A stretch of 64,000 nt of DNA from Parcubacteria group bacterium (GCA_041660065.1 JBAZXC010000002.1:170620-234619), one strand, 5' to 3'; shown: positions 11,301 through 56,280, counted from the first letter of the stretch. The notes: generated by a model not told the origin, from the letters alone. Numbers and translations are program-made.

Positions 11301-11344
11301 AATAATAAAAAATTTAACTTGTAACTTATTTAATATGACTGTCA

Positions 11345-11456
11345 TTTTTTCTTTTATATAAGCAATTACTGAAAGCCCACTTTTGTCATCCTGAATGTGT
11401 TTCAGGATCTCGCATATACGGCTTATATAGATGCTGAAACACGTTCAGCATGACAT
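11345..11456. repeat. ~115-bp intergenic repeat element copy 1 (two hairpins: TCCTGAA..TTCAGGA and ATGCTGAA..TTCAGCAT)
   Basis: Near-identical to 56149..56280 (second copy has a 22-nt insertion in hairpin 2 loop). Confidence 0.7.
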
Positions 11457-16698: not shown

Positions 16699-16756
16699 AT
16701 TTATTCACAAAACTGTCTGATCGGTCTGATCTACCCAGATTATCTTGCAGCTTGCA

Positions 16757-16790
16757 GGAGCAGGTTTTATAACCTGCTCCTTTCGTTTTT
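16757..16790 (+). terminator. intrinsic terminator GGAGCAGGTT-TTAT-AACCTGCTCC + TTTCGTTTTT
   Basis: 10-bp perfect stem plus T-run; near-identical copy at 17892..17926. Confidence 0.75.
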
Positions 16791-17856: not shown

Positions 17857-17891
17857 TTACAACACTAAAGAGCTTGACTTGCAATCTTGCA

Positions 17892-17926
17892 GGAGCAGGT
17901 TTTATAACCTGCTTCTTTTCATTTTT
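17892..17926 (+). terminator. intrinsic terminator, duplicate of 16757..16790
   Basis: GGAGCAGGTTTTATAACCTGCTTC + T-run; ~45 nt including 5' flank CTTGCA..CTTGCAGGAGCAGG shared with first copy. Confidence 0.7.
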
Positions 17927-23723: not shown

Positions 23724-24011
23724 ATGGCAAACGAAATTTACAAAGTGGATATTTTTGCAGTTGATCGTGCAATGCTAGGCGACTCAAAAACGATCACGAT
23801 CCATCGAAACAATGGCATTCCATTGAAAATTCCTCTCTCTCGCATTACATGGTCAATCGTGCCGGATGATATGGGAGAAATCGATTTTTGTATTACCCCA
23901 GTCATTGACGATGATCTGCAAATGACCTATGAGATCGCCGGATACAAAAAGTACATGGAGGAATTTGCCGAAGCAATAGGTCTCCGCACCGGCATTTTTA
24001 AAAAAGACTAA
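23724..24011 (+). CDS. hypothetical protein (95 aa)
   Basis: SD AAAGGAGA upstream of MANEIYK; terminator downstream. Confidence 0.4.
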   Translation: MANEIYKVDIFAVDRAMLGDSKTITIHRNNGIPLKIPLSRITWSIVPDDMGEIDFCITPVIDDDLQMTYEIAGYKKYMEEFAEAIGLRTGIFKKD

Positions 24012-25621: not shown

Positions 25622-26134
25622 TTGGTTATGAACACAATTCAAGAAAATAAAAATCCCACACAAGAGGACTCAACATTGGAAAGTCTTGCATTCAAAGCCA
25701 CACGACACATCGGGTCAACGACATCACTGATCATCCACTCGATTTTTTTCGTGGGAATTTTTGCGTTGCAGTGGCTCAATTTTACTTTTGATCAGATCAT
25801 GCTCATCCTCACAACCGTTGTATCTTTAGAAGCGATCTATCTCGCCATATTCATCCAGATGACCGTCAACCGCCACGCAAGCGAACTCGCTGATATCAGT
25901 GAAGATGTGGAGGATATTAGCGAGGATGTGGAAGAGATTTCCAAAGATATTGATGATATCCAGGAAGATGTGGAGGATATTAGCGAGGATGTGGAAGAGA
26001 TTGGCGAAGAAATGGAAAAGGATGATGAAAAAGATGATGCAAAACACAACAGCAGTCAACAACGGATCAATCACATCGAAAGCATCCTCAAAGAACTCCT
26101 CGCCGAGGTTCGTGAGCTAAAGGATAAGAAATAA
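25622..26134 (+). CDS. 2-TM membrane protein with acidic 21-aa tandem repeat (EDVEDISEDVEEIS..)
   Basis: 63-nt tandem DNA repeat at ~25901..26026; 3' terminal 68 nt duplicated at 27917..27984. Confidence 0.55.
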   Translation: MVMNTIQENKNPTQEDSTLESLAFKATRHIGSTTSLIIHSIFFVGIFALQWLNFTFDQIMLILTTVVSLEAIYLAIFIQMTVNRHASELADISEDVEDISEDVEEISKDIDDIQEDVEDISEDVEEIGEEMEKDDEKDDAKHNSSQQRINHIESILKELLAEVRELKDKK

Positions 26135-26194
26135 AATAAAAAACGACGATGCAACTGACACCGTCGTTAAAATTCTTCTGTGGATTATCTTGAT

Positions 26195-27913: not shown

Positions 27914-27984
27914 ATCTCAATCACATCGAAAGCATCCTCAAAGAACTCGTCGTCGAGGTCCGCGAGCTAAAGGATAAGAAATGA
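27914..27984 (+). pseudogene. remnant of the 3' end of gene 25622..26134 (encodes ..INHIESILKELVVEVRELKDKK*)
   Basis: 68 nt with 5 mismatches vs 26067..26134; no start codon upstream. Confidence 0.55.
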
Positions 27985-28048
27985 AAAAATCGGTCTTTCT
28001 CTCCACAAAGAGAAAGACCGATTGCACGTGATTACGTACTGACAATAT

Positions 28049-31173: not shown

Positions 31174-31207
31174 GTAACATAATTATACGACCGTATAATT
31201 ATGTGAC
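31174..31207. repeat. 34-bp palindrome R1 GTAACATAATTATACGACCGTATAATTATGTGAC
   Basis: Member of 6-copy family; upstream of Cas4-like nuclease gene. Confidence 0.85.
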
Positions 31208-31301
31208 ACGGTATTGTTGCCTGTTGTATCAATTGATCAATTCTTTAAAAAATTGAGTTGTGTTTTGTCCCATATTTTTATAATTAAGTTATTTGCAAAG
31301 T

Positions 31302-31335
31302 GGTACATAATCGCACGGCCGTGGGATTATGTTAC
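31302..31335. repeat. 34-bp palindrome R2 with ~70-bp conserved left flank
   Basis: GGTACATAATCGCACGGCCGTGGGATTATGTTAC; flank shared with R5 and R6. Confidence 0.85.
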
Positions 31336-31398
31336 GGGGTTTTTAGCATTTGCAGTTTGGATAAATTGCAAAATATGTAATGGGATAGGAATGTAATG

Positions 31399-32033: not shown

Positions 32034-32067
32034 GTAACATAATTATACGGCCGTATGATTATGTGAC
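32034..32067. repeat. 34-bp palindrome R3 (overlaps stop codon of PaaX-like gene, upstream of TPR gene)
   Basis: GTAACATAATTATACGGCCGTATGATTATGTGAC. Confidence 0.85.
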
Positions 32068-32637: not shown

Positions 32638-32671
32638 GTAACATAATCCCACGGCCGTGGGAATATGTTAC
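32638..32671. repeat. 34-bp palindrome R4, candidate autoregulatory operator
   Basis: GTAACATAATCCCACGGCCGTGGGAATATGTTAC, perfect 34-bp palindrome. Confidence 0.85.
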
Positions 32672-32851
32672 TTTTTTACACGTTTGAAATTTGGAGAATT
32701 GTGGTGTATTTCATCCTATATTTTTGCATTGATCATTTATCCCGATAATTTTAACGCAATGAAAGATACCAAACCACATCTATCATTTATTCTTTCAAAA
32801 ATTGAATTGTTTTTTGCCCCGTGTTTTATTTTTTAATGACTTTAGCTATGT

Positions 32852-32885
32852 GGTACATAATTATACGGCCGTGGGAATATGTGAC
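32852..32885. repeat. 34-bp palindrome R5 with conserved left flank
   Basis: GGTACATAATTATACGGCCGTGGGAATATGTGAC. Confidence 0.85.
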
Positions 32886-35877: not shown

Positions 35878-38355
35878 TTATTCACTCCACAATTTAGCGA
35901 TCACATCTTTTGTTTTTTGTTCGTATATGTCGATGAGTTTTTTTGCTGATTCAACCAAAACACGTTCTGCTTCAATTTTTTCTACAATTAGTTTTTGATT
36001 TATTTTTGATGGCAAAGAAATTTTGATGGATCTAATAATTGGCATATTCAAACCACCTCTTTGATTTTCTCCGTTAATGTTTCTTATTTCTTGATATTTT
36101 TCTTTCAAAGAATATAATAAAAATTCTGAGATCAATTTATTTTCATCTGGATTTATAGAAACCAACGATTGATTACAAGCAGCTTCAGTTCTAAGAATGG
36201 CAATGGTCCCACGTGTCTTTCCTTGACCATTCAATGCTATCAAAACAGAGTTTTTTGGCAATAATCTAGCATTTGAATTATCTAATCCAAGCTGTGTAAT
36301 CCTACCTTCACAATCATAAATTTCCCCTCTATGGATATCACCAGAAACAAGCCACTTAATATCCCCATTATAATATTCTTTAATTGTGGATCGTGGAGTG
36401 CCTCCTGTCATGAGCGTAGAAACATCTCCAATCTTTACCTTTTTCCACTCTGGGTCAATTTCAATTTTTGGCTTCCAATTTTCTGTGATTTGTTTTGCGC
36501 CGGTGATGATTTTTTGATAGCCATCCAATTCTGCTACGATTTTTTCTTGGATTTCGAGAGGTGGAAGTGGAATTTTTGTTGATTTTAATTTTCCAAAATG
36601 TCTTTTGTACCCGTCAGATTCTATTGGATTTACTATTAAATAATAATACAAAAATTTTGGAAGCAATTTGTCATTTGTCTGCAAAATTTTAATACCATCT
36701 GCACCTTGAATAAAATTATTTTCAATATATTTAATTGCGCAGGTATGATCACCAAAAACAATCACTGGGTTTTGTACTGATATTATGGCATCTACATCAT
36801 CGCTCCAACCAGATATATTATCTTGAGATTGATCAATGACAGGATATCGACCATCACTTTTTATATCTTCTTTTTTTAATTTTTTTGGTGGAACAATCGT
36901 AAGTATTAAGTCTTCAATTTTTATCATTGGCCATTTTACATTTGTATAATCTACAGATTCAAAATAGCGATCGCCACTCAAATTATAATCTCCACTCTCC
37001 ACAATTTTAGATTTTTTAACGGCTGTTGCTATAGATTCCGGATCAAGTCCGGAATGACATGATGAAGGCATCGTTTGATTTTCTTTCCATGCATTTAAAA
37101 TTTCCACTGCACATGACAAATCATTTTTATCACTTGGTCTGCGCTGTGCGCCGAGATCAAAACCATCATTGGCGATTTTGACAAAAAGAATTTCGTCATT
37201 CGTTTCCTTTTTGGTCTTGTCAAAAAAGAGGATTGACGTCTTCACACCTGCATACGGATTAAAAACGCCACTCGGCAAACTTACCACAGCCCAAAGCCCT
37301 GCATCTTCTACAAGCTTCTCACGAATCGCTTTATGCGCACGAGCTGCCTGAAAAATCACGCCCTCTGGTACAATCACGCCACATCGCCCACGATCAGTCA
37401 GATGACGAATCATATAATTGAGAAAAAGCACTTCAGTCGCTCCTGTGTCCATCTGCAATTCTTCTGCCACTGCCGCACGATCGATCTTGCCCGCGAATGG
37501 TGGATTTGCCAATATGATATCCCATTTTGTCGTTTCCCCTTGCGTATCCACAAGTGAATTGCGTCGCTTAATCGTCGCATGTGGCAATTTATGAAAGTAT
37601 AAATTCATGAGACCGAATTTGATCATATCCGGATCACTGTCAAACCCCGTGAATGCTTGATTTTCCAAAAATTTCTGTTGTTTTCCTGTGAGGATATCCA
37701 TCGGAAATTTTCCCGCTTTTTTAAAATCATCAGTTGTGTACTTCTGTTTCAAATGATCCAATGCCGCAACAAGAAATCCGCCCGTACCACAGGCCGGATC
37801 ACAAATACTTTCTTCTGCCTTTGGATCGATGACGTCTACAATAAATTTGATAATATGTCTTGGTGTGCGGAACTGTCCTCCTGTGCCCGCTGATGCGATA
37901 CTGGAAAGCAAATATTCATAAAGATCGCCAAAAAGATCCGATCGTGTTGTTTTTTCTTCAGATTCTAGATCTGCCATCAATTCTTCGATTTTATGCACGA
38001 CTGTACGCAGTGCCGGTCTGGCAAAAAGTTTCACATGTGCTTTGTTGTAAAGCATCTTCACTGTTGGATTCGTTGTTTTTTCTGCAATTTTTTCAAAGGC
38101 ATCTCCCAAGTGTCCGAAAAGAGCATCTGCATTGAGACTGAGAATATTATCCCACTGATAAATTGCCAGCTCCCCACTTAAAACCGGTTTATATTTTTTG
38201 TCCAACAGTTTTTGCTCTTGATCATGCTTGTGTAGTTCGCGTAAAAAAATAATATAAATCATGAGTTCAATCACCGCCGTATGATTGGTAAGACCGCCAG
38301 CCCAAATGACATCCATAATGCTATTGATCTTGCTACGAAATTCTTGTAATGACAT
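35878..38355 (-). CDS. hsdMS: Type I R-M methyltransferase fused to specificity subunit (HsdM-HsdS single polypeptide, two TRDs)
   Basis: HsdM N-domain, motif I DPACGTGGF, motif IV LANPPFAG; C-terminal half has two target-recognition domains each ending in conserved LPPLEIQEKIVAELD / LPSKINQKLIVEKIE. Confidence 0.85.
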   Translation of the reverse strand: MSLQEFRSKINSIMDVIWAGGLTNHTAVIELMIYIIFLRELHKHDQEQKLLDKKYKPVLSGELAIYQWDNILSLNADALFGHLGDAFEKIAEKTTNPTVKMLYNKAHVKLFARPALRTVVHKIEELMADLESEEKTTRSDLFGDLYEYLLSSIASAGTGGQFRTPRHIIKFIVDVIDPKAEESICDPACGTGGFLVAALDHLKQKYTTDDFKKAGKFPMDILTGKQQKFLENQAFTGFDSDPDMIKFGLMNLYFHKLPHATIKRRNSLVDTQGETTKWDIILANPPFAGKIDRAAVAEELQMDTGATEVLFLNYMIRHLTDRGRCGVIVPEGVIFQAARAHKAIREKLVEDAGLWAVVSLPSGVFNPYAGVKTSILFFDKTKKETNDEILFVKIANDGFDLGAQRRPSDKNDLSCAVEILNAWKENQTMPSSCHSGLDPESIATAVKKSKIVESGDYNLSGDRYFESVDYTNVKWPMIKIEDLILTIVPPKKLKKEDIKSDGRYPVIDQSQDNISGWSDDVDAIISVQNPVIVFGDHTCAIKYIENNFIQGADGIKILQTNDKLLPKFLYYYLIVNPIESDGYKRHFGKLKSTKIPLPPLEIQEKIVAELDGYQKIITGAKQITENWKPKIEIDPEWKKVKIGDVSTLMTGGTPRSTIKEYYNGDIKWLVSGDIHRGEIYDCEGRITQLGLDNSNARLLPKNSVLIALNGQGKTRGTIAILRTEAACNQSLVSINPDENKLISEFLLYSLKEKYQEIRNINGENQRGGLNMPIIRSIKISLPSKINQKLIVEKIEAERVLVESAKKLIDIYEQKTKDVIAKLWSE

Positions 38356-38358
38356 TTT

Positions 38359-40779
38359 TTATATTTTTAATATTTTACTTGTGGCAATATCTTCCGCCAT
38401 TTCGATCAGTTCTTCCTCTTTAAATCGTTCTAACCATTCACCCGGTCTATACACGTTAAATGGTGGCTCTGATAAAAATGACACATTTCTCTCCTGTGCA
38501 GATCGCACCACTTTCTCACGCAATTCATCGTTGGTCGTCATCTTGGCAAAAATCAGTCGTGACATCAATGTGCGCTCTTGATCCGCACCTGGCTCTATAC
38601 CGTATTTTTGTACCATATCCTCCATCCATTGATCTCTCTGCGAATCACGCGTTGGAAGCTCTTCCTTGCCCAGTGCACTGAGTACAAAATTACGAATGGA
38701 TACAATTACACCAAAACCTTCTTGCAATTTATCTTCTGAAAAATATTCTTTTGGTTTGTTAAATACGTGTTCATCCAAAAATAGACTCAACTCTGCCTCA
38801 CGCTCTTCATCTTCTGCCATCTTGAGAACTTCCCCATTTTCTGCGACAATTTCTTGAATTGCTTTGGTCCATGCGGATTGATACATGTTTTTGTCCACTG
38901 CATCACCATCGGGACCAACCGTCATTTTATCCCTGGTAAGCACAGCATCATCATCGTTGCTCACAATTGGTGTAAATGGCGACGGCGTTTCAGTTCCACC
39001 ATCGCCAATAACTCCCTCACCTCTGCCACCTGTCACCGTAGCCCCCTTTAATATTAATGGGGTTTTGAGTGGCGCTTCCCAATCATATTTTTCTTCAAAG
39101 TATTCCACAACACCGCAAAAATCAAAAATCGTAAAAAACTCTTTTTTAAAATCTTTACCATCATGGTGAAACGTGTACAAACGTGTGCCGCGTCCCTTAA
39201 TTTGCTGATATGAGGTTGTTTCAAAAATCGGTCGTGCAAGTACGATATTGAGAACTTCCGGACAGTCAAAACCTGTGGTGAGCATATCTACTGATACCGC
39301 AACACGCATACGTTGATTTTCTGGATCCTTGAATTCTTTGGCGATTTGTTGTGCATTCATCACACTACTCGTAATTGTTTTGGCAAATTGTCCACCATAT
39401 GCCGGCATCATCTCATTGAGAATTTTTTCCAACTTCAGTGCATGCCGCTGTGATACCGCAAAAATAATCGACTTGCCAATTTCTCCATCAGGTGCTTTAT
39501 TGGCATTATCGAGAAATTCCTGCATCATCGTGCGGTTCGTTTTTTCCAAATAGACCTTCTTTTCCAAATCTCGAATTGTAAAGGATTCGCCCTTTGCCTC
39601 GGATACTTCCAAACCCTCTGGACTAAGTGCCTTTTGCGTAAGCACCGTGTTCATTTTGTGAAATCGTGGACCGACAAGAAATGGCCCCTGTGAATCGCCA
39701 ATGCCATCTTGAATAGTATAACGATATGTTGCCACACCATCCGCACATCCAAAAAACTTATATGTATCTCTCTGAAGACGTTTTTCAAATGCACGCGGAT
39801 CATCTATTTGTAATTGTGATTCATCAATATTTTTGAGAAAGTCTTTCGGTGTGGCAGTGAGACCAACTTTTGTCGCTCCGTAAAAACGATCTGTTGCAGC
39901 ACGTGCTTGTGCAGAATATATACTGCGGTGTGCCTCATCATGAATAATTAAATCAAAATACCCCGGTGAAAAATAATCTTCGCCATTCTTAATCATGCTT
40001 TGAATTGTTGCCACCACAACATTTGCGCCAACAATATTATTGCGTGCACTTCCCCAAAATGTGGCAATGGATGATAAATCACCTAAAATTGGTTCGAATG
40101 CCCCCTTGGTTTGTGTAGCAAGTGTAATACGGTCTACAAGAAAGAGAACATTTTGCGCCTGGTGTGTTTCTAAAAATTTGCGAATAAGCGCAGCCGCAAG
40201 TCCAGTCTTACCCGTCCCCGTTGCCATCTCCAAAAGAAATGCTCTTTTGCCGGCATCATATCCTTCGGCAATTGTATTGATTGCTTCTACTTGATAATGG
40301 CGCAATGAAAAATTACTCGGATCAACTCTTTGTAAATAGTCTGGTGTGATCGGATTGCGCGTAAGTGGCACTACATTACCCATCGTATCAGCATTTCTTT
40401 TGCGCTCAAGATCCCGTTGTGTATAAAATTCATTTACTTGAATCGCATCTCCTTTGGTAATATCCCAAAAATAAATAACGTGATCATTTGCCAAATAAAT
40501 ATATTGGATTTTTCCTTTATACTGAGCATCCACATAATTTAACGCCTGTTGTTTGGCGCTATACGGATCAATTTCTGGTGCCTTTGCTTCAATAAGCGCT
40601 AATGGTTGTCCAGATGAGTTTTTCAAAATATAATCCGATCGTCCTGCAACGCCATGATCTTCAAAAATAACTTGTTGAAAACTTTCAATATCCCATTTGG
40701 CATCCCGCAATTTTCTATCAATAACAACACGTGAAAAAGCTTCACTCATAGATATAACATCATAATATAACTCTTTCAT
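38359..40779 (-). CDS. hsdR: Type I restriction enzyme R subunit
   Basis: N-terminal PD-(D/E)XK (DYIL...EAK), helicase motif I ATGTGKT, motif II DEAH; start set at MKELYY. Confidence 0.85.
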   Translation of the reverse strand: MKELYYDVISMSEAFSRVVIDRKLRDAKWDIESFQQVIFEDHGVAGRSDYILKNSSGQPLALIEAKAPEIDPYSAKQQALNYVDAQYKGKIQYIYLANDHVIYFWDITKGDAIQVNEFYTQRDLERKRNADTMGNVVPLTRNPITPDYLQRVDPSNFSLRHYQVEAINTIAEGYDAGKRAFLLEMATGTGKTGLAAALIRKFLETHQAQNVLFLVDRITLATQTKGAFEPILGDLSSIATFWGSARNNIVGANVVVATIQSMIKNGEDYFSPGYFDLIIHDEAHRSIYSAQARAATDRFYGATKVGLTATPKDFLKNIDESQLQIDDPRAFEKRLQRDTYKFFGCADGVATYRYTIQDGIGDSQGPFLVGPRFHKMNTVLTQKALSPEGLEVSEAKGESFTIRDLEKKVYLEKTNRTMMQEFLDNANKAPDGEIGKSIIFAVSQRHALKLEKILNEMMPAYGGQFAKTITSSVMNAQQIAKEFKDPENQRMRVAVSVDMLTTGFDCPEVLNIVLARPIFETTSYQQIKGRGTRLYTFHHDGKDFKKEFFTIFDFCGVVEYFEEKYDWEAPLKTPLILKGATVTGGRGEGVIGDGGTETPSPFTPIVSNDDDAVLTRDKMTVGPDGDAVDKNMYQSAWTKAIQEIVAENGEVLKMAEDEEREAELSLFLDEHVFNKPKEYFSEDKLQEGFGVIVSIRNFVLSALGKEELPTRDSQRDQWMEDMVQKYGIEPGADQERTLMSRLIFAKMTTNDELREKVVRSAQERNVSFLSEPPFNVYRPGEWLERFKEEELIEMAEDIATSKILKI

Positions 40780-40887
40780 TCTACCCCCTATCCCACCAAA
40801 AATCAAAAAAATGGCTTTTTTATGGTGTTTTTTTTGGTGTTGCTATTTATTTCATTTTATCATGATGCTCTTTTGATAACATATACC

Positions 40888-40985
40888 AGATTGCTACACC
40901 CAACTCAAAGAGGGCTCGCAATGACAATGGGAGATTGCTACACCCACTCAAGGAGAACTCGCGATTGGCGATGGGAGATCACTTA
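40888..40985. repeat. 44-bp tandem repeat, 2.2 copies (AGATTGCTACACCCAACTCAAAGAGGGCTCGCAATGACAATGGG)
   Basis: Read from sequence upstream of hsdR. Confidence 0.6.
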
Positions 40986-41128
40986 CTAAGAGATACGAGG
41001 AGTGGCTATGTGTGTATTGAAATACACTTTTTACATGGCACATTTCACACATATTGAGATTTTTGCTATGATATCTATAAATAATTGCACCATCACCATT
41101 AGATCATCATACTATTGAGGAGGATTTC

Positions 41129-41284
41129 ATGGCTGGACACGGAACCAACAAAACAGGCAACAAAAAAAGCAATGGACGGCGAGCCGGAATCAAGACAAAA
41201 GGTCGTGCCAAACAAATGCCACCCACAATCGCTGCCAAAAGAGAGCAGGAGAAGCGTGAAAGAAGCAGAAATAACCGCTATTAG
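41129..41284 (+). CDS. 51-aa lysine/arginine-rich small protein (module copy 1)
   Basis: MAGHGTNKTGNKKSNGRRAGIKTKGRAKQMPPTIAAKREQEKRERSRNNRY; SD GAGGAGG; paralog at 45332..45487 with >90% DNA identity over first 80 nt. Confidence 0.45.
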   Translation: MAGHGTNKTGNKKSNGRRAGIKTKGRAKQMPPTIAAKREQEKRERSRNNRY

Positions 41285-41311
41285 TCGTTAAAACGACCAA
41301 CAACTCCCCAT

Positions 41312-41348
41312 GGAGACAGTGTGCAACATCACCTGTCTCCCTTTTTTA
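41312..41348 (+). terminator. intrinsic terminator GGAGACAG..CTGTCTCC + T-run (conserved in module copy 2 at ~45515..45550)
   Basis: Read from sequence. Confidence 0.6.
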
Positions 41349-41441
41349 ATGTGTTGCATTTTTATCAATTTTGTGTTAGGATGGCACGTCGTGTACATTT
41401 AACAATTTCCTAAACAAACCCTACATCACGGAGGAATACCT

Positions 41442-41732
41442 ATGCAGAGCATCACATCACGTGACATTATCAGCACAAAGTACACCATCATAGATGGCAA
41501 ATCAGTCATCCTCATCTTGCTTGTGAAGTTGCCCCTGGTCAGACTACCTCTTGAACGAACTACATGGCTTGTTGACAAATCTGCACCGACCAATAGCGTT
41601 GAAATCTCAGAAGAGCCCAATCAAGGAACCGCAGAATGTGATTTTACCATTGTAGGTGACACGATGGAAACATTGCGCGCATTTGGACATCAGATTCTCA
41701 CCGACTCATTTAATGAAATATTGTGGAGATAA
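41442..41732 (+). CDS. 96-aa hypothetical protein (module copy 1)
   Basis: Paralog of 45647..45937 (~35% aa identity, shared C-terminal ..FARQILTD.F); own SD and terminator. Confidence 0.45.
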   Translation: MQSITSRDIISTKYTIIDGKSVILILLVKLPLVRLPLERTTWLVDKSAPTNSVEISEEPNQGTAECDFTIVGDTMETLRAFGHQILTDSFNEILWR

Positions 41733-41959
41733 CCTGGACTCTCCCCTATCGCCACAACCGACGACATGTCTATACATGTTGTCGGTTTTTATTTTTTATT
41801 AATTTATGTTAATTGTCTTTTTTTAATAATGTATCACTGTACGCCCCCCCTTGCATGCTCATGATAACAATTATTATTACTCCTTGACTAATTTTTGAAT
41901 ATAAAAAAGCGTGACCCTCATTAAGTCACGCCTACTTTGATATTTGCAGAGATTTCTGC

Positions 41960-42298
41960 TCAACTTTTTTTACTTGCCGCTTCCAATAATGCACCTACCA
42001 GGATCGCAGCACCGACACCAACTGCCACTTTTGCTACTTTACCCATAGGCTTTTTTGGAGCATCTTGCGGATAATCTTGCGGTTCCACATCATATGCTAG
42101 GCCAGCAGTAAAAAAACCTTCTTTTCTTTTTTTTGTTCGACCGCACCTAGGGCATTGATGATATGTGAACCCATCAGTATCGCCACATGTTCGCTCCATG
42201 TCAACAGGGATTCTTATAATCCGTGTTCTCCCATATCCAATCTCTTCCTCCGACTCATCAAAACAACTTTTACATTTCATAATATCACCCTCCTCCAA
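41960..42298 (-). CDS. zinc-ribbon protein with C-terminal TM helix
   Basis: CKSC...CPRC; C-terminal VAVGVGAAILVGALL. Confidence 0.4.
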   Translation of the reverse strand: MEEGDIMKCKSCFDESEEEIGYGRTRIIRIPVDMERTCGDTDGFTYHQCPRCGRTKKRKEGFFTAGLAYDVEPQDYPQDAPKKPMGKVAKVAVGVGAAILVGALLEAASKKS

Positions 42299-42401
42299 GT
42301 TTTGCGCTTACCTCCTAATTGCCTCTTCGACAAAGAACTTCTAATTTCATTATCAATACCATATTACAAATATGCTAATTTGTCAAGGTTCATCAATATT
42401 T

Positions 42402-43445
42402 TTATTCTTCTTTCACACGGTTTTGTTTCACTATAAAATGATCTTCGGGATATGTCATTTTTTGTTCCTCTGCAAGTTTTCGCAAATATCCCTTCCCCAT
42501 CGTTTTCTCAATCAGTCGTGCAAGTGGCAAAAGATGTCCTGTGAAATGTGCTTTTGCAAAAACAGCAAAGACATCTTCGCGCGATGCGAATTGTTCAGAA
42601 CTTTTTTCATAGATTTGGTCAATAAGCTTATTGAGAAATTGTCGCTCTTCGAGATATACATCAGCTGTCCCCCATTTGGACATTCCTTCATAGCCCCTCT
42701 TATGCAGTTCTCTCACAAATGTGCCTGAAATACGCTCCGTTTCATCAAATCCAGGATAAGTTTCATCACGAAAATTCATTCCGGCCTCAAGAGCAGGTAT
42801 GTCCGCAAAATTCTCCACTGCAAATCGTCTTGCCAATTCCTCTGTGACAGCCTCATTCAACATTTCAAAATACCCATAGCCACCTTCTTTATCTTGCATA
42901 CCAAAGATTCTCATGCCGTCTCTTCGTCTATGATAGTGCAATTTGCTCTTTTCATCATCTTGCCATTGTGCATGTACTGTTTGATATTCTTGCAAGTGAA
43001 TCAATTCATGTGAAAGGACTTTTGCAAATTTTACAAGATCATCATGACGAAATAGATTTATCAAGGCACCTTGAATCTCCATTATATAAAGTCCATCACA
43101 CATTGAGCCATCTTCATCGCGAAATCTTGACCAATTAGATTTTGATAACTTTTTTTGATCTATAATATGGATATGATCAGCGGTGATTTTAGTATATATT
43201 CCACCATAGCGTTCCACAAAGTCTTTCATTTTTTCATTGACAGCATCAATAATCTCAGATTCATCGTCTGTTTTCTCTCTTTCAAAGCCATAAAATTCTT
43301 GATTTTCAAATAGATCCGCAAAGAATTCCAATGCTTTTTCTTCATCTTCTTTATTTTTCATCAATGCGCGTGAAATAGTTGTTTTTCTTTCCGGCGTATT
43401 TTCCGCGGGAGCTTGTGCAACGGGTTGTTCAAATGGATTTTTCAT
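42402..43445 (-). CDS. hypothetical protein with HExxH metallopeptidase motif
   Basis: VLSHELIHLQEY. Confidence 0.45.
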   Translation of the reverse strand: MKNPFEQPVAQAPAENTPERKTTISRALMKNKEDEEKALEFFADLFENQEFYGFEREKTDDESEIIDAVNEKMKDFVERYGGIYTKITADHIHIIDQKKLSKSNWSRFRDEDGSMCDGLYIMEIQGALINLFRHDDLVKFAKVLSHELIHLQEYQTVHAQWQDDEKSKLHYHRRRDGMRIFGMQDKEGGYGYFEMLNEAVTEELARRFAVENFADIPALEAGMNFRDETYPGFDETERISGTFVRELHKRGYEGMSKWGTADVYLEERQFLNKLIDQIYEKSSEQFASREDVFAVFAKAHFTGHLLPLARLIEKTMGKGYLRKLAEEQKMTYPEDHFIVKQNRVKEE

Positions 43446-43558
43446 ATGTGGGCATTTTTTTATCTTTGAATCAGTATTCCGATACTATATCTTTCCCTGA
43501 TATTCTATTAATTATTTTTTTTATATCAATTTTTCCTTCTTCTTTTTCCTCTGTTATA

Positions 43559-44545
43559 TCATTTTCCATTCAATAATAACAATATCAGTCCGATCATGCG
43601 ATCTTTGTCGCGTGGTTTTGATTCTGCCACAAGCAGTGTGATCGTGGTAAGTGATTCCGGCGTGATCTTTTTTTGGAAATCAATACCCGTTTTGTGCAAA
43701 AACCACACAAATGCAAATGCGCCCGTACGCTTATTGCCATCGTTAAACGGGTGATTTTTCACGACAAAATATAGTAGATGTGCAGCTTTTTCTTCAATAC
43801 TCGGATACATATCAGCGCCAAACGCTGATTGCAAAACGTTACCCAATATACCTTCAAGATTTTTTTCTTGTTTTTCTTGTGCAAACAGATCCGATGCTTG
43901 TTTTTTGGCAATCAAATCTTTCTTTAAATCACCTACAGCACTGTACAAATCACTCGCACGCAGTGATACATCTTTTTTTGTTACACCCTTGTGTGGCAAC
44001 CGATCTTCATCATAGGCTTCCAATGAAAACCATGTACCGGCAAATGTTTTGATCAGTTCCAAAATATCATCTGTTTTGATCGTATGATCTTTTGGTAGCA
44101 GCTTTTGTACGTGTTCTACCGCTGTGAGAAAATTGTCATAATTTTTGCCAATCCGTTGCGGATTGATGAGATATCCTTTTGTGATATATTGTCCGAGAAT
44201 TTTATTAGCCCAACGTCTAAACTCAATTGCGCGAACAGAATTTGTTCTATATCCAACCGCTAAAATAATATCCAAGTTATAGAAATTCACTGTCCTAGTT
44301 TGCATTTTCCCCTCTATCGCTCCGTGTTTTGTGGTATGTGCAAAATTTGCACATACCACTTTCTGATCAAGTTCTTTATCAGAAAAGATGTTTTTAATAT
44401 GTTTGACAATCACAGTTCTATCAACATCAAAAATCTCGGCAATTTGTTTTTGTGTTGCCCAAATTGTTTCATTATCAAAATCCTCACGAAGTTCTATTGC
44501 TCCGTTTTTTGCTTGATAAATTGCCAATTGTTTCTTGTTTGCCAT
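43559..44545 (-). CDS. RhuM-family N-domain fused to Fic/Doc domain protein
   Basis: Fic motif HPFNDGNKRTG; N-terminal ~130 aa resemble virulence protein RhuM family. Confidence 0.75.
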   Translation of the reverse strand: MANKKQLAIYQAKNGAIELREDFDNETIWATQKQIAEIFDVDRTVIVKHIKNIFSDKELDQKVVCANFAHTTKHGAIEGKMQTRTVNFYNLDIILAVGYRTNSVRAIEFRRWANKILGQYITKGYLINPQRIGKNYDNFLTAVEHVQKLLPKDHTIKTDDILELIKTFAGTWFSLEAYDEDRLPHKGVTKKDVSLRASDLYSAVGDLKKDLIAKKQASDLFAQEKQEKNLEGILGNVLQSAFGADMYPSIEEKAAHLLYFVVKNHPFNDGNKRTGAFAFVWFLHKTGIDFQKKITPESLTTITLLVAESKPRDKDRMIGLILLLLNGK

Positions 44546-45331
44546 GGATATATTTTGTTTTAAATTAGCACATTCATTCTACCCTTTTTCCCTATTCCCT
44601 GCCAATGTGATGCAATTTTTAAACTCTTCAGAATTCCCGAATGGTTGGGGATGTTTAAAATCCCTCTTTAATTCCTACCTACCGGCAGGCAGGCCCCCTT
44701 TACAAAAAGGAGATATGCAAAATTTTTTTGTGTGATAACAAATTTACAGCCAAGCACAGGTAATAAAAATGGGCATCAGTGATTTACACCAATGCCCTTT
44801 GCAAATTTACCAAGGGTTCTTCCCTCTTTTTTACAGATTTAACGGATCAATTTCGTCATGATTATCCAAAACGATCATCCCCTCCACGGTAATGTATCGT
44901 ATGGGAATTTTGACTCCAGGTGGCAACACAAGTCCATTCGTCTTGCTAATATCTTTTTTTTACAATGATATCGAGTCGCTTGGCTCTCGTCTCTTTCCTT
45001 TGGCGATCCCTCCCCACTTCCACTACGCGATCATAGTGAATTTGTTGACGGTATTGAATCGCTTGTGATCTCATCTTATCCCTATTTTGGCACCCTCTTT
45101 TCATCTTGTCCCCCATATTTTTGTTGAATTTGATCAAACTGGAGACTCATCTTATCCGCTTGTGTATTTATCTAAAGAACTTCGTTTTGTAATCGACTAT
45201 AAAAAAGAGTACACGGCGAGCCGGCTCATGTCAATTTTTTTGCACATTTCACACGCATTGCGTTTTTTGCTATGATAGCAATAAATGGATTTTACCGAAC
45301 CATAAACCATCCCAATGACAAGGAGGATCTC

Positions 45332-45487
45332 ATGGCTGGACACGGAACTAACAAAACAGGCAACAAAAAAAGTAATGGACGGCGAGCCGGAATCAAAACA
45401 AAAGGTCGTACCAAACCAGTGCCCCCCAATATCGTTGCAAAAAGAGAACAAAAAAAGCGCGAAAAGGGTCGACCTACCCGCTATTAG
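45332..45487 (+). CDS. 51-aa basic small protein (module copy 2)
   Basis: MAGHGTNKTGNKKSNGRRAGIKTKGRTKPVPPNIVAKREQKKREKGRPTRY; conserved promoter (..CACATTTCACAC..TTTTTGCTATGATA) shared with copy 1. Confidence 0.45.
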   Translation: MAGHGTNKTGNKKSNGRRAGIKTKGRTKPVPPNIVAKREQKKREKGRPTRY

Positions 45488-45646
45488 TCGCTCAAACGAC
45501 CAATAGCTCTCTACGGAGACAGGATGCAACATCACCTGTCTCTATTTTTTTGGCGTTGTGTATTTTTCAATTGTGATATACAATGACTCATCGCGTTATT
45601 TAACAGTTTTTTTTGGAAAAACCCCTACATTTCGGAGGAGTATTTC

Positions 45647-45937
45647 ATGATAAAAATCACTACGGACGATATCATCAACACAAAGTGCATCATCACGGGT
45701 GACAAAGTAACCGTCCTCATCATCCACCTGAAAGGTAAGGTGCTAAAAATTCCCCTTGATAATACCATGTGGATCACTACAAATAAAATGCCGGAAAATA
45801 CAGTTTTGATCGCGTCAAAAGAACCCAACGATGAATCTGCTGAACGCACTTTCATCATTGCGAGCTCTTCGGTCGAATACTTGCACGAATTTGCACGTCA
45901 AATTCTTACTGACACATTTGATCCAAACGAATTCTAA
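45647..45937 (+). CDS. 96-aa hypothetical protein (module copy 2)
   Basis: Paralog of 41442..41732; followed by terminator CGACGACATGTGTAGACATGTGTCGG-like hairpin + T-run. Confidence 0.45.
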   Translation: MIKITTDDIINTKCIITGDKVTVLIIHLKGKVLKIPLDNTMWITTNKMPENTVLIASKEPNDESAERTFIIASSSVEYLHEFARQILTDTFDPNEF

Positions 45938-46129
45938 ATGCCCCGATACAACCGACACATGTCTACACATGTCGTCGGTTTTTTTATCTTTTTGATTCGC
46001 GTTGATTACCTTGGAATCACTTACGTTATCTACTCAAAGATCAATTCCGCGATCTTCCCTCTAATAAGTTCTTTGAAAAACTGTATTGTGCTCTGCCCCA
46101 TATTTTTATTTTTAAATTATTTACAACGT

Positions 46130-46163
46130 GTAACATAATTATACGGCCGTGGGATTATGTTAC
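46130..46163. repeat. 34-bp palindrome R6 with conserved left flank, 240 nt upstream of AAA-CYTH gene
   Basis: GTAACATAATTATACGGCCGTGGGATTATGTTAC. Confidence 0.85.
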
Positions 46164-46401
46164 GCGGTATTTTTAACGTTGCATTCATAATTATAATATT
46201 TTTTTCATTAAAATTTCATGTAAGTAATTGATTGCTTAATTAAAGGTACCTGACCCCATTTATCAAATGTGTTTAGACATTACCAAAAAATATTGACTTT
46301 TTACTGTATTTATATTATTATTTCCTGTCAGATCTTTGACAAGTAAATATCCATACATTTTTGATCACTATCGTTTCAACCCAAAAAATTGGAGGCTACA
46401 T

Positions 46402-47505
46402 ATGCTTACAGGAAAGATTTTATTGATCGTTTTGACAGGTGGTCCTTGTGCAGGAAAAACCAGCGCCCTCTGCCGACTCTTGGAGTGGCTGACGGGACTG
46501 GATTACCGTGTTGCCATCGTTCCGGAGGCAGCCACTGAGCTGATCACCTGCGGGATCCGACCACAAAATTTTGATGACAACGTGCTGTTTCAGCAGTTTG
46601 TAACCAAAAACATTTGTGCAAAGGAGGACTTGTTTGCGATGGCCGCTTTGCGGATGAAAACAAACGACCCTTCCAAGCCAACCATTCTCCTGTGCGACAG
46701 AGGCCTCATGGATTCACGTGCCTATGTCGGAGATGAAGCATTTACAAAGATCCTCGCCAAAGAAAATTTGGATCTTGCAGATGCATGTGACAGGCGCTAT
46801 GCCGGTGTGATCCATCTGCGCACAGCCGCTGATGGAGCAGAAGAATATTACACACTGAGCAATAATGCCGCACGATCAGAATCGCCCAAAAAAGCACGAG
46901 AATTGGACCAAGCCACTGAACAAGCGTGGCACGGTCATCATCGCTTGGTCGTTGTGGACAACAGCACGTCTTTTGCAGGAAAACTCATGCGCACACAACA
47001 GATCGTGTCCTCGATCCTGGGCATTCCCGGTCCGACAGAGTATGAACGGAAATTCCTCATTACCGAGGCTGACGAACCGCTCATCATCCCTATTCCCCAT
47101 GTAGATGTTGCCATAGAGCAATACTATCTCAACGGAGACAAGGAGCGCGTCAGGAAACGGACACGGCATGACGCCAGTACGTACTTCTACACGATCAAAA
47201 CAAATCGTCCGGGCATGGAGAGAGCCAAGGTCGATCGGATCATTAGCGAAGATGAATTCTTCGACTTCCTGCGCAGAAGGGATCTTTCGCGAGGCGTGGT
47301 ACGGAAGACCCGGACGCATTTCGTCTGGCAAAACCAGTATTTCGAGTTGGACCATTTCCATCACAACAACATGAAAATTCTCGAAGTGCGCCTTACCCAG
47401 GGGCAAACAGAGGTCATTCTCCCCCCGTTCATTCCCACGTCACTTGACGTAACGGATGATGAACGGTTTTACAACAACAGTATCGCCGCATCGATCAAAG
47501 ATTGA
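46402..47505 (+). CDS. P-loop NTPase (AAA_28/NadR-like) fused to C-terminal CYTH (triphosphate tunnel metalloenzyme) domain
   Basis: Walker A LTGGPCAGKTS; CYTH signature EYERKFLI; GC content visibly higher than surroundings; start set at MLTGK after SD GGAGG. Confidence 0.6.
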   Translation: MLTGKILLIVLTGGPCAGKTSALCRLLEWLTGLDYRVAIVPEAATELITCGIRPQNFDDNVLFQQFVTKNICAKEDLFAMAALRMKTNDPSKPTILLCDRGLMDSRAYVGDEAFTKILAKENLDLADACDRRYAGVIHLRTAADGAEEYYTLSNNAARSESPKKARELDQATEQAWHGHHRLVVVDNSTSFAGKLMRTQQIVSSILGIPGPTEYERKFLITEADEPLIIPIPHVDVAIEQYYLNGDKERVRKRTRHDASTYFYTIKTNRPGMERAKVDRIISEDEFFDFLRRRDLSRGVVRKTRTHFVWQNQYFELDHFHHNNMKILEVRLTQGQTEVILPPFIPTSLDVTDDERFYNNSIAASIKD

Positions 47506-47713
47506 TTGATATGAGGTGGCACAAGATCAAAAAGCAAGAGCATGAGGAAAACTCCCCATGCTCTTTATTTATTGTGTATAGGATTAAGTCTAGATTCCCG
47601 TTTTCACGGGAATGACAAGAGTTTTCAGACTCAAACATAGTTTCTCCTGACAATTTTTTCTTTGATTTCTTGCCCAAATGTAAAAGCCGGTGTTTCTTTT
47701 GAAACATCCGGCT

Positions 47714-53278: not shown

Positions 53279-53455
53279 TAGATATGATCTAAACAACCCG
53301 CAAAAGCGAGTACGGTATGTAATATATCTGACTCGCTTTTTTATTTCACCCGGTTGACTTCTCTTACATTTCATCCTACACTACCCCTTCATGTTGTTTA
53401 ACAACACTTTGTATAAAAACCCATCCCCAAAACCTAACAGAGGAGGTGCACATCC

Positions 53456-53773: not shown

Positions 53774-53984
53774 AAAAATTTCATTCTTGATCCTACACAA
53801 GCGAGTACGATATGCACTATATCTGACTCGCTTTTTTGTTGGCAAATCCAGCCGTCGCATGAAGCTATGGACTGGCAAGAAAAAACCGGGGGAATCTCTG
53901 CTGAGATCCTCCCGGTTATGCTTCGCCAAGCCATAGCCTTTTGTTCGTAGAATGGCTTTGCCAAGCCGTAGCCTTGGTCTTTTT

Positions 53985-56100: not shown

Positions 56101-56148
56101 ATATGGCTGTTATTAGTATCCCTATTAACTAATTTAATATAAATGTTA

Positions 56149-56280
56149 TTTTTTCTTTTATATAAGCGCTTATTGAAGGCAAACTTTTGTCATCCTGAAT
56201 TTATTTCAGGATCTCACACTCATGGCTTACTTAGATGCTGAAACAATCTGCCTGCCGATAGACAGGGTTCAGCATGACAT
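56149..56280. repeat. ~115-bp intergenic repeat element copy 2 (with 22-nt insertion related to the CCTGCCTGCCGG motif)
   Basis: Aligns with 11345..11456. Confidence 0.7.

Follow-up and report, generated by a model that had tools for sequence, protein, structure and literature searches.

A two-gene unit duplicated in direct orientation

A stretch of 64,000 nucleotides (nt) of DNA from a Parcubacteria-group bacterium (GCA_041660065.1, JBAZXC010000002.1:170620-234619), part of a 307-kb contig of a metagenome-assembled genome (MAG) of the candidate phyla radiation (CPR), carries two copies of a small cassette in which a gene for a strongly basic protein of 51 amino acids (aa) is followed by a gene for a mildly acidic protein of 96 aa (NCBI locus tags WC819_03530/35 and 03555/60). 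This whole stretch is referred to here as the window, and all coordinates are counted from its first letter. A preliminary description of the DNA had reported both copies of the cassette, each with a promoter, two open reading frames (ORFs) and two terminators, and every one of these features was found where it had been placed.

The duplicated unit spans 41038-41795 in copy A and 45242-46000 in copy B, ~758 nt each, in direct orientation and 4203-4204 nt apart, and a two-copy nhmmer profile gives exactly 2 matches in the window (E 1e-254 or better). The order of elements, all on the plus strand, is an extended -10 promoter, the 51-aa ORF, an intrinsic terminator (T1), the 96-aa ORF and a second terminator (T2). 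Similarity between the copies is confined to the interval from promoter to T2 and ends exactly there, with a nucleotide identity of ~84% over 230 nt and a longest exact run of 23 nt.

Promoter A (41044-41072, within a conserved block at 41038-41082) reads TTCACA-17-TATGAT with the upstream TG of an extended -10 element, a 10/12 match, and promoter B (45248-45276) has the same hexamers, spacing and TG; the two are 87% identical over 45 nt, with flanks at 22-47%. A 5' untranslated region (5'UTR) of ~50 nt then leads to a GGAGGA ribosome-binding site. Small ORF A (41129-41284; MFA5986392) encodes a protein of net charge +13 and pI 11.8, and small ORF B (45332-45487; MFA5986397) one of net charge +15 and pI 11.9 whose residues 1-26 are the same as in A. 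These two genes are the only intergenic, strongly basic small ORFs preceded by a Shine-Dalgarno sequence in the 64 kb.

Downstream of small ORF A, a hairpin at 41284-41297 begins within the stop codon itself and is followed by T1 at 41312-41347 (stem 41312-41340, T-run to 41347; -21.1 kcal/mol, z-score -5.3). The corresponding post-stop hairpin and T1 of copy B lie at 45487-45551 (T1 at 45515-45551; z -2.8), and T1 is 82% identical between the copies, loop included. The 157-nt intergenic spacer that holds this strong terminator ends at 96-aa ORF A (41442-41732; net charge -4, pI 4.8, GGAGGA Shine-Dalgarno; MFA5986393) or B (45647-45937; net charge -4; MFA5986398). T2 follows at 41756-41797 in copy A (14-bp stem plus T-run; z -6.2) and at 45950-45987 in copy B (z -4.5), with 85% identity. 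Local folds of T1 and T2 in both copies, with z-scores of -2.8 to -6.2, are thus strongly structured. The preliminary description had been right that the 96-aa proteins are homologous, and only its figure of ~35% identity needs amending, BLASTP giving 41% (E 8e-22). The status of an internal "second promoter" needs correction as well: the candidate (TTGCAT-17-TAGGAT in one copy, TTGTGT-17-TACAAT in the other) has a -35 hexamer matching at 3/6 positions, is absent from the promoter scan output and is predicted to be weak, so that expression of the 96-aa gene may require transcripts that run on past T1.

That the ORFs are spurious, or that the duplication is an artefact of assembly, is a reading that a single MAG and genes lacking homologs might invite. 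The preliminary description had itself singled out assembly as a point to be checked, and the artefact was not borne out. A contig of the independent Logan assembly of run SRR18595301 corresponds to 37032-47618 of the window (10,587 nt), covers both copies and is identical with 0 mismatches, and copies that are diverged to only ~84% identity make repeat collapse or a mis-join impossible. The coding status of the small ORF is supported in turn by the pattern of substitutions, nonsynonymous and synonymous divergence (dN and dS) in the annotated frame being 0.10 and 0.49, a ratio of 0.21, as opposed to 0.8-1.2 in the other two frames. This frame-specific selection identifies the annotated peptide as its target, and the idea that the ORF is non-coding, or that the true gene lies in another frame, is thereby excluded; the open +1 frame is evidently a by-product of T-poor composition. 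Given also the consensus Shine-Dalgarno sequence of both genes and the promoter and terminators of both copies, an artefact is scarcely credible.

An old duplication with a conserved 5' segment

Identity between the copies varies sharply along the unit. From 22% upstream it rises to 87% in the promoter, falls to 47% in the 5'UTR and climbs again to 76% at the Shine-Dalgarno sequence and start, 96% in codons 1-26 and 73% in codons 27-52; the post-stop hairpin and T1 stand at 82%, the inter-gene leader at 64%, the 96-aa ORF at 57%, the following spacer at 36% and T2 at 85%. The synonymous divergence of ~1 in both the 96-aa gene (dS 0.97, dN 0.49) and the 3' half of the small gene (dS ~1.1, dN 0.23) makes the duplication an old one. 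Spacers that have decayed to near-randomness beside signals that have been retained form the pattern predicted by long-term purifying selection on what would be two functional copies.

The small proteins are 80% identical overall and identical over residues 1-26. The preliminary description had put nucleotide identity at the 5' end of the small gene above 90%, and 75 of the first 78 nt (96%) are indeed the same. Codons 1-26 show a dN of 0 and a dS of only 0.18, with 3 of ~19 synonymous sites changed, against 43 of ~78 elsewhere in the unit (dS ~1.0-1.1; Fisher p=0.002). The unevenness of divergence to which the preliminary description had drawn attention is therefore real and exceeds what selection at the protein level would leave; between its two explanations, gene conversion and functional constraint, the data fit either. 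So low a dS calls for an old, short gene conversion or for constraint at the nucleotide level. On the first explanation, codons 1-26 could be an old conversion tract of ~90 nt; on the second, their synonymous sites may be under selection, for example to keep an A-rich initiation region open. With 23 nt as the longest exact run, the copies are unlikely still to be recombining.

The segment is unstructured (z ~0), and the diverged 5'UTR parts it from the conserved promoter. No complementary partner for it was found within the window, and within the two small genes the promoter scan picked up nothing promoter-like on the minus strand. A known RNA element, riboswitch or leader was also considered and set aside, as no Rfam model matched, whether at gathering score or at E<=1, and whole-leader folds were not significant.

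Orphan proteins and a third paralog

The small protein (5.7 kDa) is hydrophilic, with a grand average of hydropathy (GRAVY) of -1.7 to -1.9 and no hydrophobic segment, and is probably intrinsically disordered. The 96-aa protein is predicted to be beta-rich with a C-terminal helix. AlphaFold2 models are of low confidence, with predicted local distance difference test (pLDDT) scores of 50-53.

A tblastn search with the copy B 96-aa protein uncovered a further, solitary paralog of 95 aa elsewhere in the window (23724-24011, plus strand; MFA5986374). The two proteins align collinearly (BLASTP E 5e-6, 33% over 80 aa; hhalign E 8.7e-5), and the paralog shares with the 96-aa proteins an LKIPL..(I)TW motif and a C-terminal helix of the form Y..EFA..I, which would make the 96-aa type a three-member paralog family in this genome. 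The gene is equipped with a TTGACA-17-TAATAT promoter, a Shine-Dalgarno sequence and a terminator of its own and is not preceded by a small basic ORF. UvrA and a serine hydrolase are its neighbours, and the locus is not part of the defence region in which the cassettes lie.

Beyond this genome, no relatives of either protein were found in the collections searched. The preliminary description recognised no family for either, and searches of Pfam, NCBIfam, PHROGs, PADLOC, PDB and a collection of 15 billion proteins agree; in particular, profile hidden Markov model (HMM) searches of Pfam, NCBIfam, PADLOC and PHROGs at E<=0.1 detect no toxin, antitoxin or defence domain in either cassette protein. 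A word-indexed search of 5.8 billion clusters returned matches only from this contig, all five of them singleton clusters. HMMER, run exhaustively on 1.84 billion representatives with a profile of the two 96-aa proteins, recovered only the two paralogs and two spurious matches (E 4e-4 and 1e-3), which are surface-repeat proteins; it missed the third paralog too, from which it follows that relatives below ~30% identity would escape it. At the DNA level, scans of GTDB species representatives, JGI metagenomes and IMG/VR by near-exact-word methods found nothing for the small gene, a scan of IMG/VR found nothing for the 96-aa family, and tblastn against phage and plasmid collections was likewise empty. 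The suggestion that the cassette might be traced in related genomes thus came to nothing in the genome, metagenome, phage and plasmid scans.

The preliminary description had further allowed that the small protein might prove to be a known ribosomal or nucleoid protein. None was found, and profile tests of L27 for the small protein and of p6 of phage phi29 for the 96-aa protein failed. For bL27, Pfam PF01016 reaches E 0.025 and 15.1 bits, below its cut-off of 20.5, with copy B only, copy A giving nothing; BLASTP against Thermus thermophilus L27 gives E 0.46; and hhalign gives a probability of 0.3% with an L27 alignment that was validated at E 1e-47 on PDB L27 chains. The match of the small protein to the N-terminal tail of uS4 (E 0.096) is likewise sub-threshold and compositional. 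That the small protein is nonetheless a lineage-specific, ribosome-associated factor resembling a ribosomal protein (r-protein), present as two paralogs, would be in keeping with its size, its extreme basicity and a strong promoter, Shine-Dalgarno sequence and terminator of its own, as in small r-protein genes, as well as with its likeness to the L27 and uS4 tails. On the other hand, r-proteins are conserved at least at the family level, whereas no homolog of this one turned up in the other genomes searched, and the gene lies in a defence island instead of an r-protein operon; together with the failed L27 comparisons, this leaves a ribosomal role quite improbable.

A second possibility concerns the 96-aa protein, which could be a very remote relative of p6, a histone-like protein of about 100 aa that binds dsDNA, the cassette then being a phage-derived, DNA-organising pair. 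A profile of the three paralogs aligns collinearly with PDB entries 8pw2 and 8pw4 over ~65 residues at E 0.09-0.1, with shared EIT(K), W and S.EPN.E positions, and the proteins are alike in size, in acidity and in a beta-rich layout with a short C-terminal helix. The details do not sustain the match, however. Comparison by hhalign with four p6 homologs gives a probability of 8.1%, and Pfam PF17548, which finds phi29 p6 itself at 1.7e-54, matches none of the three paralogs at E<=10. G37 and A44, which are strictly conserved in p6 according to the p6 structure paper (PMC10899789), are unmatched in the HMM alignment, only V59 being conservatively replaced by I. The shared Trp is specific to phi29. 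A p6 origin is therefore a very remote prospect. CsrA was rejected as well (PDB matches at E 0.7-1.3; hhalign probability 19% over the 25 columns of a beta-hairpin motif; no Pfam match), and neither protein is attributable to any known sequence or fold family.

Defence genes around the cassettes and the function of the pair

Three minus-strand genes lie between the direct copies, as the preliminary description had it. The first (41960-42298; 112 aa) encodes a Zn-ribbon protein (CxxC...CxxC) with a C-terminal hydrophobic or transmembrane segment, and belongs to no family. The second (42402-43445; 347 aa) encodes a protein with an HELIH (HExxH) motif, also of no known family and with no close relatives in JGI contigs. 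The third (43559-44545) encodes a RhuM-Fic/Doc fusion (Pfam RhuM 3e-20, Fic 1e-13; TIGR01550 DOC_P1) that corresponds to the candidate defence family PDC-S23 of PADLOC (E 1.1e-110, residues 1-326 of 328). Ahead of cassette A come, in order, a PD-(D/E)XK nuclease, a TPR protein, a PaaX-like regulator, a D12 methyltransferase, a DndB-like protein, a methylase-specificity (M+S) protein and HsdR; after cassette A, the three insert genes and cassette B are followed by AAA_28-CYTH, DUF488, RadC, NYN and a LexA-like S24 peptidase. The restriction-modification (R-M) genes, like the three insert genes, are all on the minus strand. The R-M system itself (35878-40806) is type I-like, with methylase and specificity parts fused in one protein (825 aa, N6_Mtase plus Methylase_S) that adjoins HsdR (815 aa), and the DndB-like protein and the D12 adenine methyltransferase lie upstream of it on the same strand.

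The cassettes had been proposed to bracket, and perhaps to mark, the boundaries of this island. This proposal does not hold. Cassette A lies inside the minus-strand defence array and in the opposite orientation, and so does not delimit it; the copies, at 84% over 230 nt, a longest identity of 23 nt and a dS of ~1, are not near-identical recombining repeats. Mobility features are missing also, no tRNA, integrase or transposase being found among the annotated neighbours and no significant terminal repeats at the insert. Homology of the flanks beyond the unit amounts to a marginal 32-nt match (reached in 6 of 200 shuffles), and none of 22 loci with AAA_28-CYTH homologs in other genomes has cassette-like components. 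The bracketing position is incidental. The G+C content of the cassettes (41-42%) matches the 42.5% background of the genome, whereas the insert stands at 37.5% and the whole 31.2-46.2 kb stretch at 37.2%, a contrast that suggests that foreign genes accumulated beside native cassettes.

Better candidates for boundary scars are found further out, in a ~109-nt repeat whose copies at 31236-31344 and 46064-46172 (81% identical, with another at 32780-32885) bracket the low-GC (37.2% vs 42.5%) 15-kb defence segment. Each repeat consists of a palindrome and a ~60-nt segment, and on the minus strand the segments encode the truncated N-termini MGQNTTQFFKELIN, MGQSTIQFFKELIRGKIAELIFE and TGQKTIQFLKE, each followed by a stop codon; a full-length gene with this start is absent from the window. 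There are six such near-perfect palindromes of 28-34 nt (31177-31204, 31305-31332, 32037-32064, 32641-32668, 32855-32882 and 46133-46160), with the consensus GT(A/G)ACATAAT...ACGGCCGT...ATTATGT(T/G)AC and a chance expectation of 0. They stand 16-41 nt upstream of minus-strand start codons, which belong to the PD-(D/E)XK nuclease, the TPR protein, the PaaX-like regulator or a gene remnant. The PaaX-like regulator nearby may use them as operators, or they may be 5'UTR hairpins.

Within the insert, a perfect 14+14-nt palindrome (GTGGTATGTGCAAA A TTTGCACATACCAC) occupies 44331-44359 in the RhuM-domain coding region, and its half-site resembles the -35 region of the cassette promoter (TTTGCACATTTCACA, 88% over 16 nt), a likeness that may be fortuitous or may mean that the two have a binding site in common. 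The 700-nt gap between RhuM-Fic and cassette B (44546-45241) has a minus-strand terminator-like hairpin at 44797-44771 and, at 44946-45137, a basic minus-strand ORF of 56 or 63 aa, called by one gene caller, though not by NCBI, and matching no family; a small transcription unit, or else DNA in decay, may account for the gap.

Repeats occur elsewhere in the window too. An intergenic repeat of 120 nt (11322-11441 and 56126-56245; 84% identical), with a conserved hairpin (CATCCTGAA...TTCAGGATC) and no Rfam match, lies just upstream of minus-strand genes and may be a shared leader or a regulatory RNA. Pairs of terminator-like hairpins, 89-90% identical and belonging to different genes, are present at 53301-53345 and 53796-53840 and at 16751-16790 and 17886-17925; this genome seems often to reuse or duplicate its regulatory hairpins. 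The gene at 25622-26134 contains a 21-nt tandem coding repeat (25891-26037) specifying acidic, E/D-rich heptads, and the segments at 26067-26139 and 27917-27989 (73 nt, 92% identical) encode the same C-terminal tail, ...INHIESILKEL..EVRELKDKK and a stop, which indicates another small paralogous pair.

On the anatomy of the cassette, its coding status, its age, the purifying selection acting on it, its orphan status and its freedom from mobility features we have little doubt. What the pair does is approached through composition and layout. The extreme charge of the small protein makes nucleic-acid binding plausible, and its only sub-threshold resemblances, to the basic RNA-binding r-protein tails of L27 and uS4, fit a nucleic-acid-binding composition; we rate putative binding through the N-terminal 26 residues as an even call. 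The charges of the two products are complementary in each cassette (+13/+15 vs -4), and divergence is distributed in a suggestive way, with a dN of 0 in the N-terminal half of the small protein, 0.23 in its C-terminal half and 0.49 in the 96-aa protein. A contact between that C-terminal half and the 96-aa protein would explain their joint divergence, but the putative partnership of the two is, taken singly, doubtful. As an overall account, a polycation that is specific to the lineage, binds nucleic acid and has an acidic protein as its partner nevertheless appears to us the best explanation available, held tentatively and at somewhat short of even confidence.

On this account, the two cassettes would go back to a single complete expression unit, restricted to the lineage, that underwent segmental duplication long ago, and selection would have kept both daughters functional. 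The strong extended -10 promoter and consensus ribosome-binding site would drive production, in excess, of the 51-residue polycation, whose invariant N-terminal 26 residues would do the binding of RNA or DNA. T1 would let only some transcripts reach the 96-aa gene, to which the weak internal promoter may add a little, and the 96-aa protein would act as a binder, chaperone or adaptor of the small protein, contacting its variable C-terminal half in a cognate manner. Foreign, lower-GC defence genes would have accumulated next to and between these native cassettes, the repeats themselves having no part in recombination or mobility.

Several considerations weigh against this account. The functional claims rest on composition and layout, the searches having found no homolog and the structural models being of low confidence. 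The co-divergence of the small C-terminus with the partner is read from two sequences only, and the low synonymous divergence of codons 1-26, for which protein function does not account, may reflect gene conversion. The solitary paralog lacks a small gene, which shows that the family can work without the small protein, and a terminator between the two genes could fit independent genes equally well.

The last two points lead directly to the alternative that the genes are unrelated neighbours that were duplicated together, the 96-aa family acting alone and the small protein having a separate role. Besides the strong T1 and 157-nt spacer, and the occurrence of the 95-aa paralog in a core-chromosome context, it can be said for such independence that one contiguous duplicated segment needs no functional reason for linkage in both copies. 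Yet the tandem layout, spacing and terminators have survived a dS of ~1 over which spacers decayed to near-random, and the charges of the two products are complementary, so that we consider independence rather doubtful.

The preliminary description had suggested that the pair might be toxin-antitoxin (TA)-like, and the setting invites a reading of the cassettes as insulated, paralogous TA or abortive-infection-like accessories of the defence island. The surroundings are dense in defence genes (type I R-M, DndB and the D12 methyltransferase, PD-(D/E)XK, RhuM-Fic/PDC-S23, AAA_28-CYTH, DUF488, RadC and NYN), the unit is small and pairs a basic with an acidic product, and one half of the small protein diverges quickly along with the partner; one product, for example the polycation through binding ribosomes or DNA, would inhibit growth, and the other would neutralise it. 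But no toxin, antitoxin or defence HMM matches, and a palindromic operator is not evident in the promoter. The strong terminator between the genes, unlike the tight operon of a type II system, and the solitary paralog outside the island contradict canonical TA architecture, and that 95-aa paralog speaks further against reading the larger protein as a toxin left unneutralised. A type I system, in which the toxin would be small, hydrophobic and membrane-active, is disfavoured by the hydrophilic character of the small protein (GRAVY -1.8); the promoter scan showed no antisense promoter. A TA or abortive-infection role is accordingly unlikely, while some looser defence-accessory role may apply, given the location.

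A more specific version of the preferred polycation-and-partner account would make the cassettes a new two-component module of the CPR lineage, in which a disordered, abundant, polycationic effector is paired with a cognate acidic beta-protein in insulated, co-diverged pairs that serve the defence array in an accessory or regulatory capacity. The N-terminal 26 residues would then find their target in a conserved nucleic acid or in the ribosome, and the acidic protein would bind the C-terminal half of the effector. So detailed a proposal is decidedly speculative and improbable as it stands.

The genomes of CPR bacteria are small and streamlined, their MAGs commonly contain orphan genes, and small polycationic proteins are systematically under-annotated. 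The retention in such a streamlined genome of two full units and a third paralog, with signals intact at a dS of ~1, argues for a real, lineage-specific function, and a new nucleic-acid-binding or defence-accessory pair would, if the account is correct, add to the poorly understood biology of the CPR. With one genome in hand and orphan genes so common, practical importance is modest until homologs or experiments appear. Most notable here are the mosaic of conservation that tracks function, the first 78 nt of the small gene, which have stayed frozen, and the three retained paralogs.

Among known systems, the basic extensions of bL27 and uS4 and the small r-proteins share with the small protein a cationic composition rich in G, N, K, R and T, a size class and strong expression signals. 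The small protein differs from L27 in having no beta-sandwich and in not being conserved outside this genome. The 96-aa protein differs from phi29 p6 in that it lacks an acidic C-terminal tail and a phage context. Type II TA systems consist of two small adjacent genes, typically with one basic and one acidic product, and here too two small co-directional genes form a basic/acidic pair, in a defence island and as diverged paralogous pairs; what sets the cassettes apart is the missing toxin or antitoxin domain, T1 and a 157-nt spacer in place of a tight or overlapping operon, the solitary paralog of the larger protein, and a 51-aa polycation with no recognisable DNA-binding fold. Finally, RhuM-Doc fusions have been described within R-M loci before, in the setting of multilevel defence (Anantharaman et al., 2013; PMC3710099); the neighbourhoods of R-M, RhuM and Doc genes described there contain no counterpart of the cassettes, while the RhuM-Fic fusion of the present locus likewise adjoins a type I R-M system and lies on the same strand.

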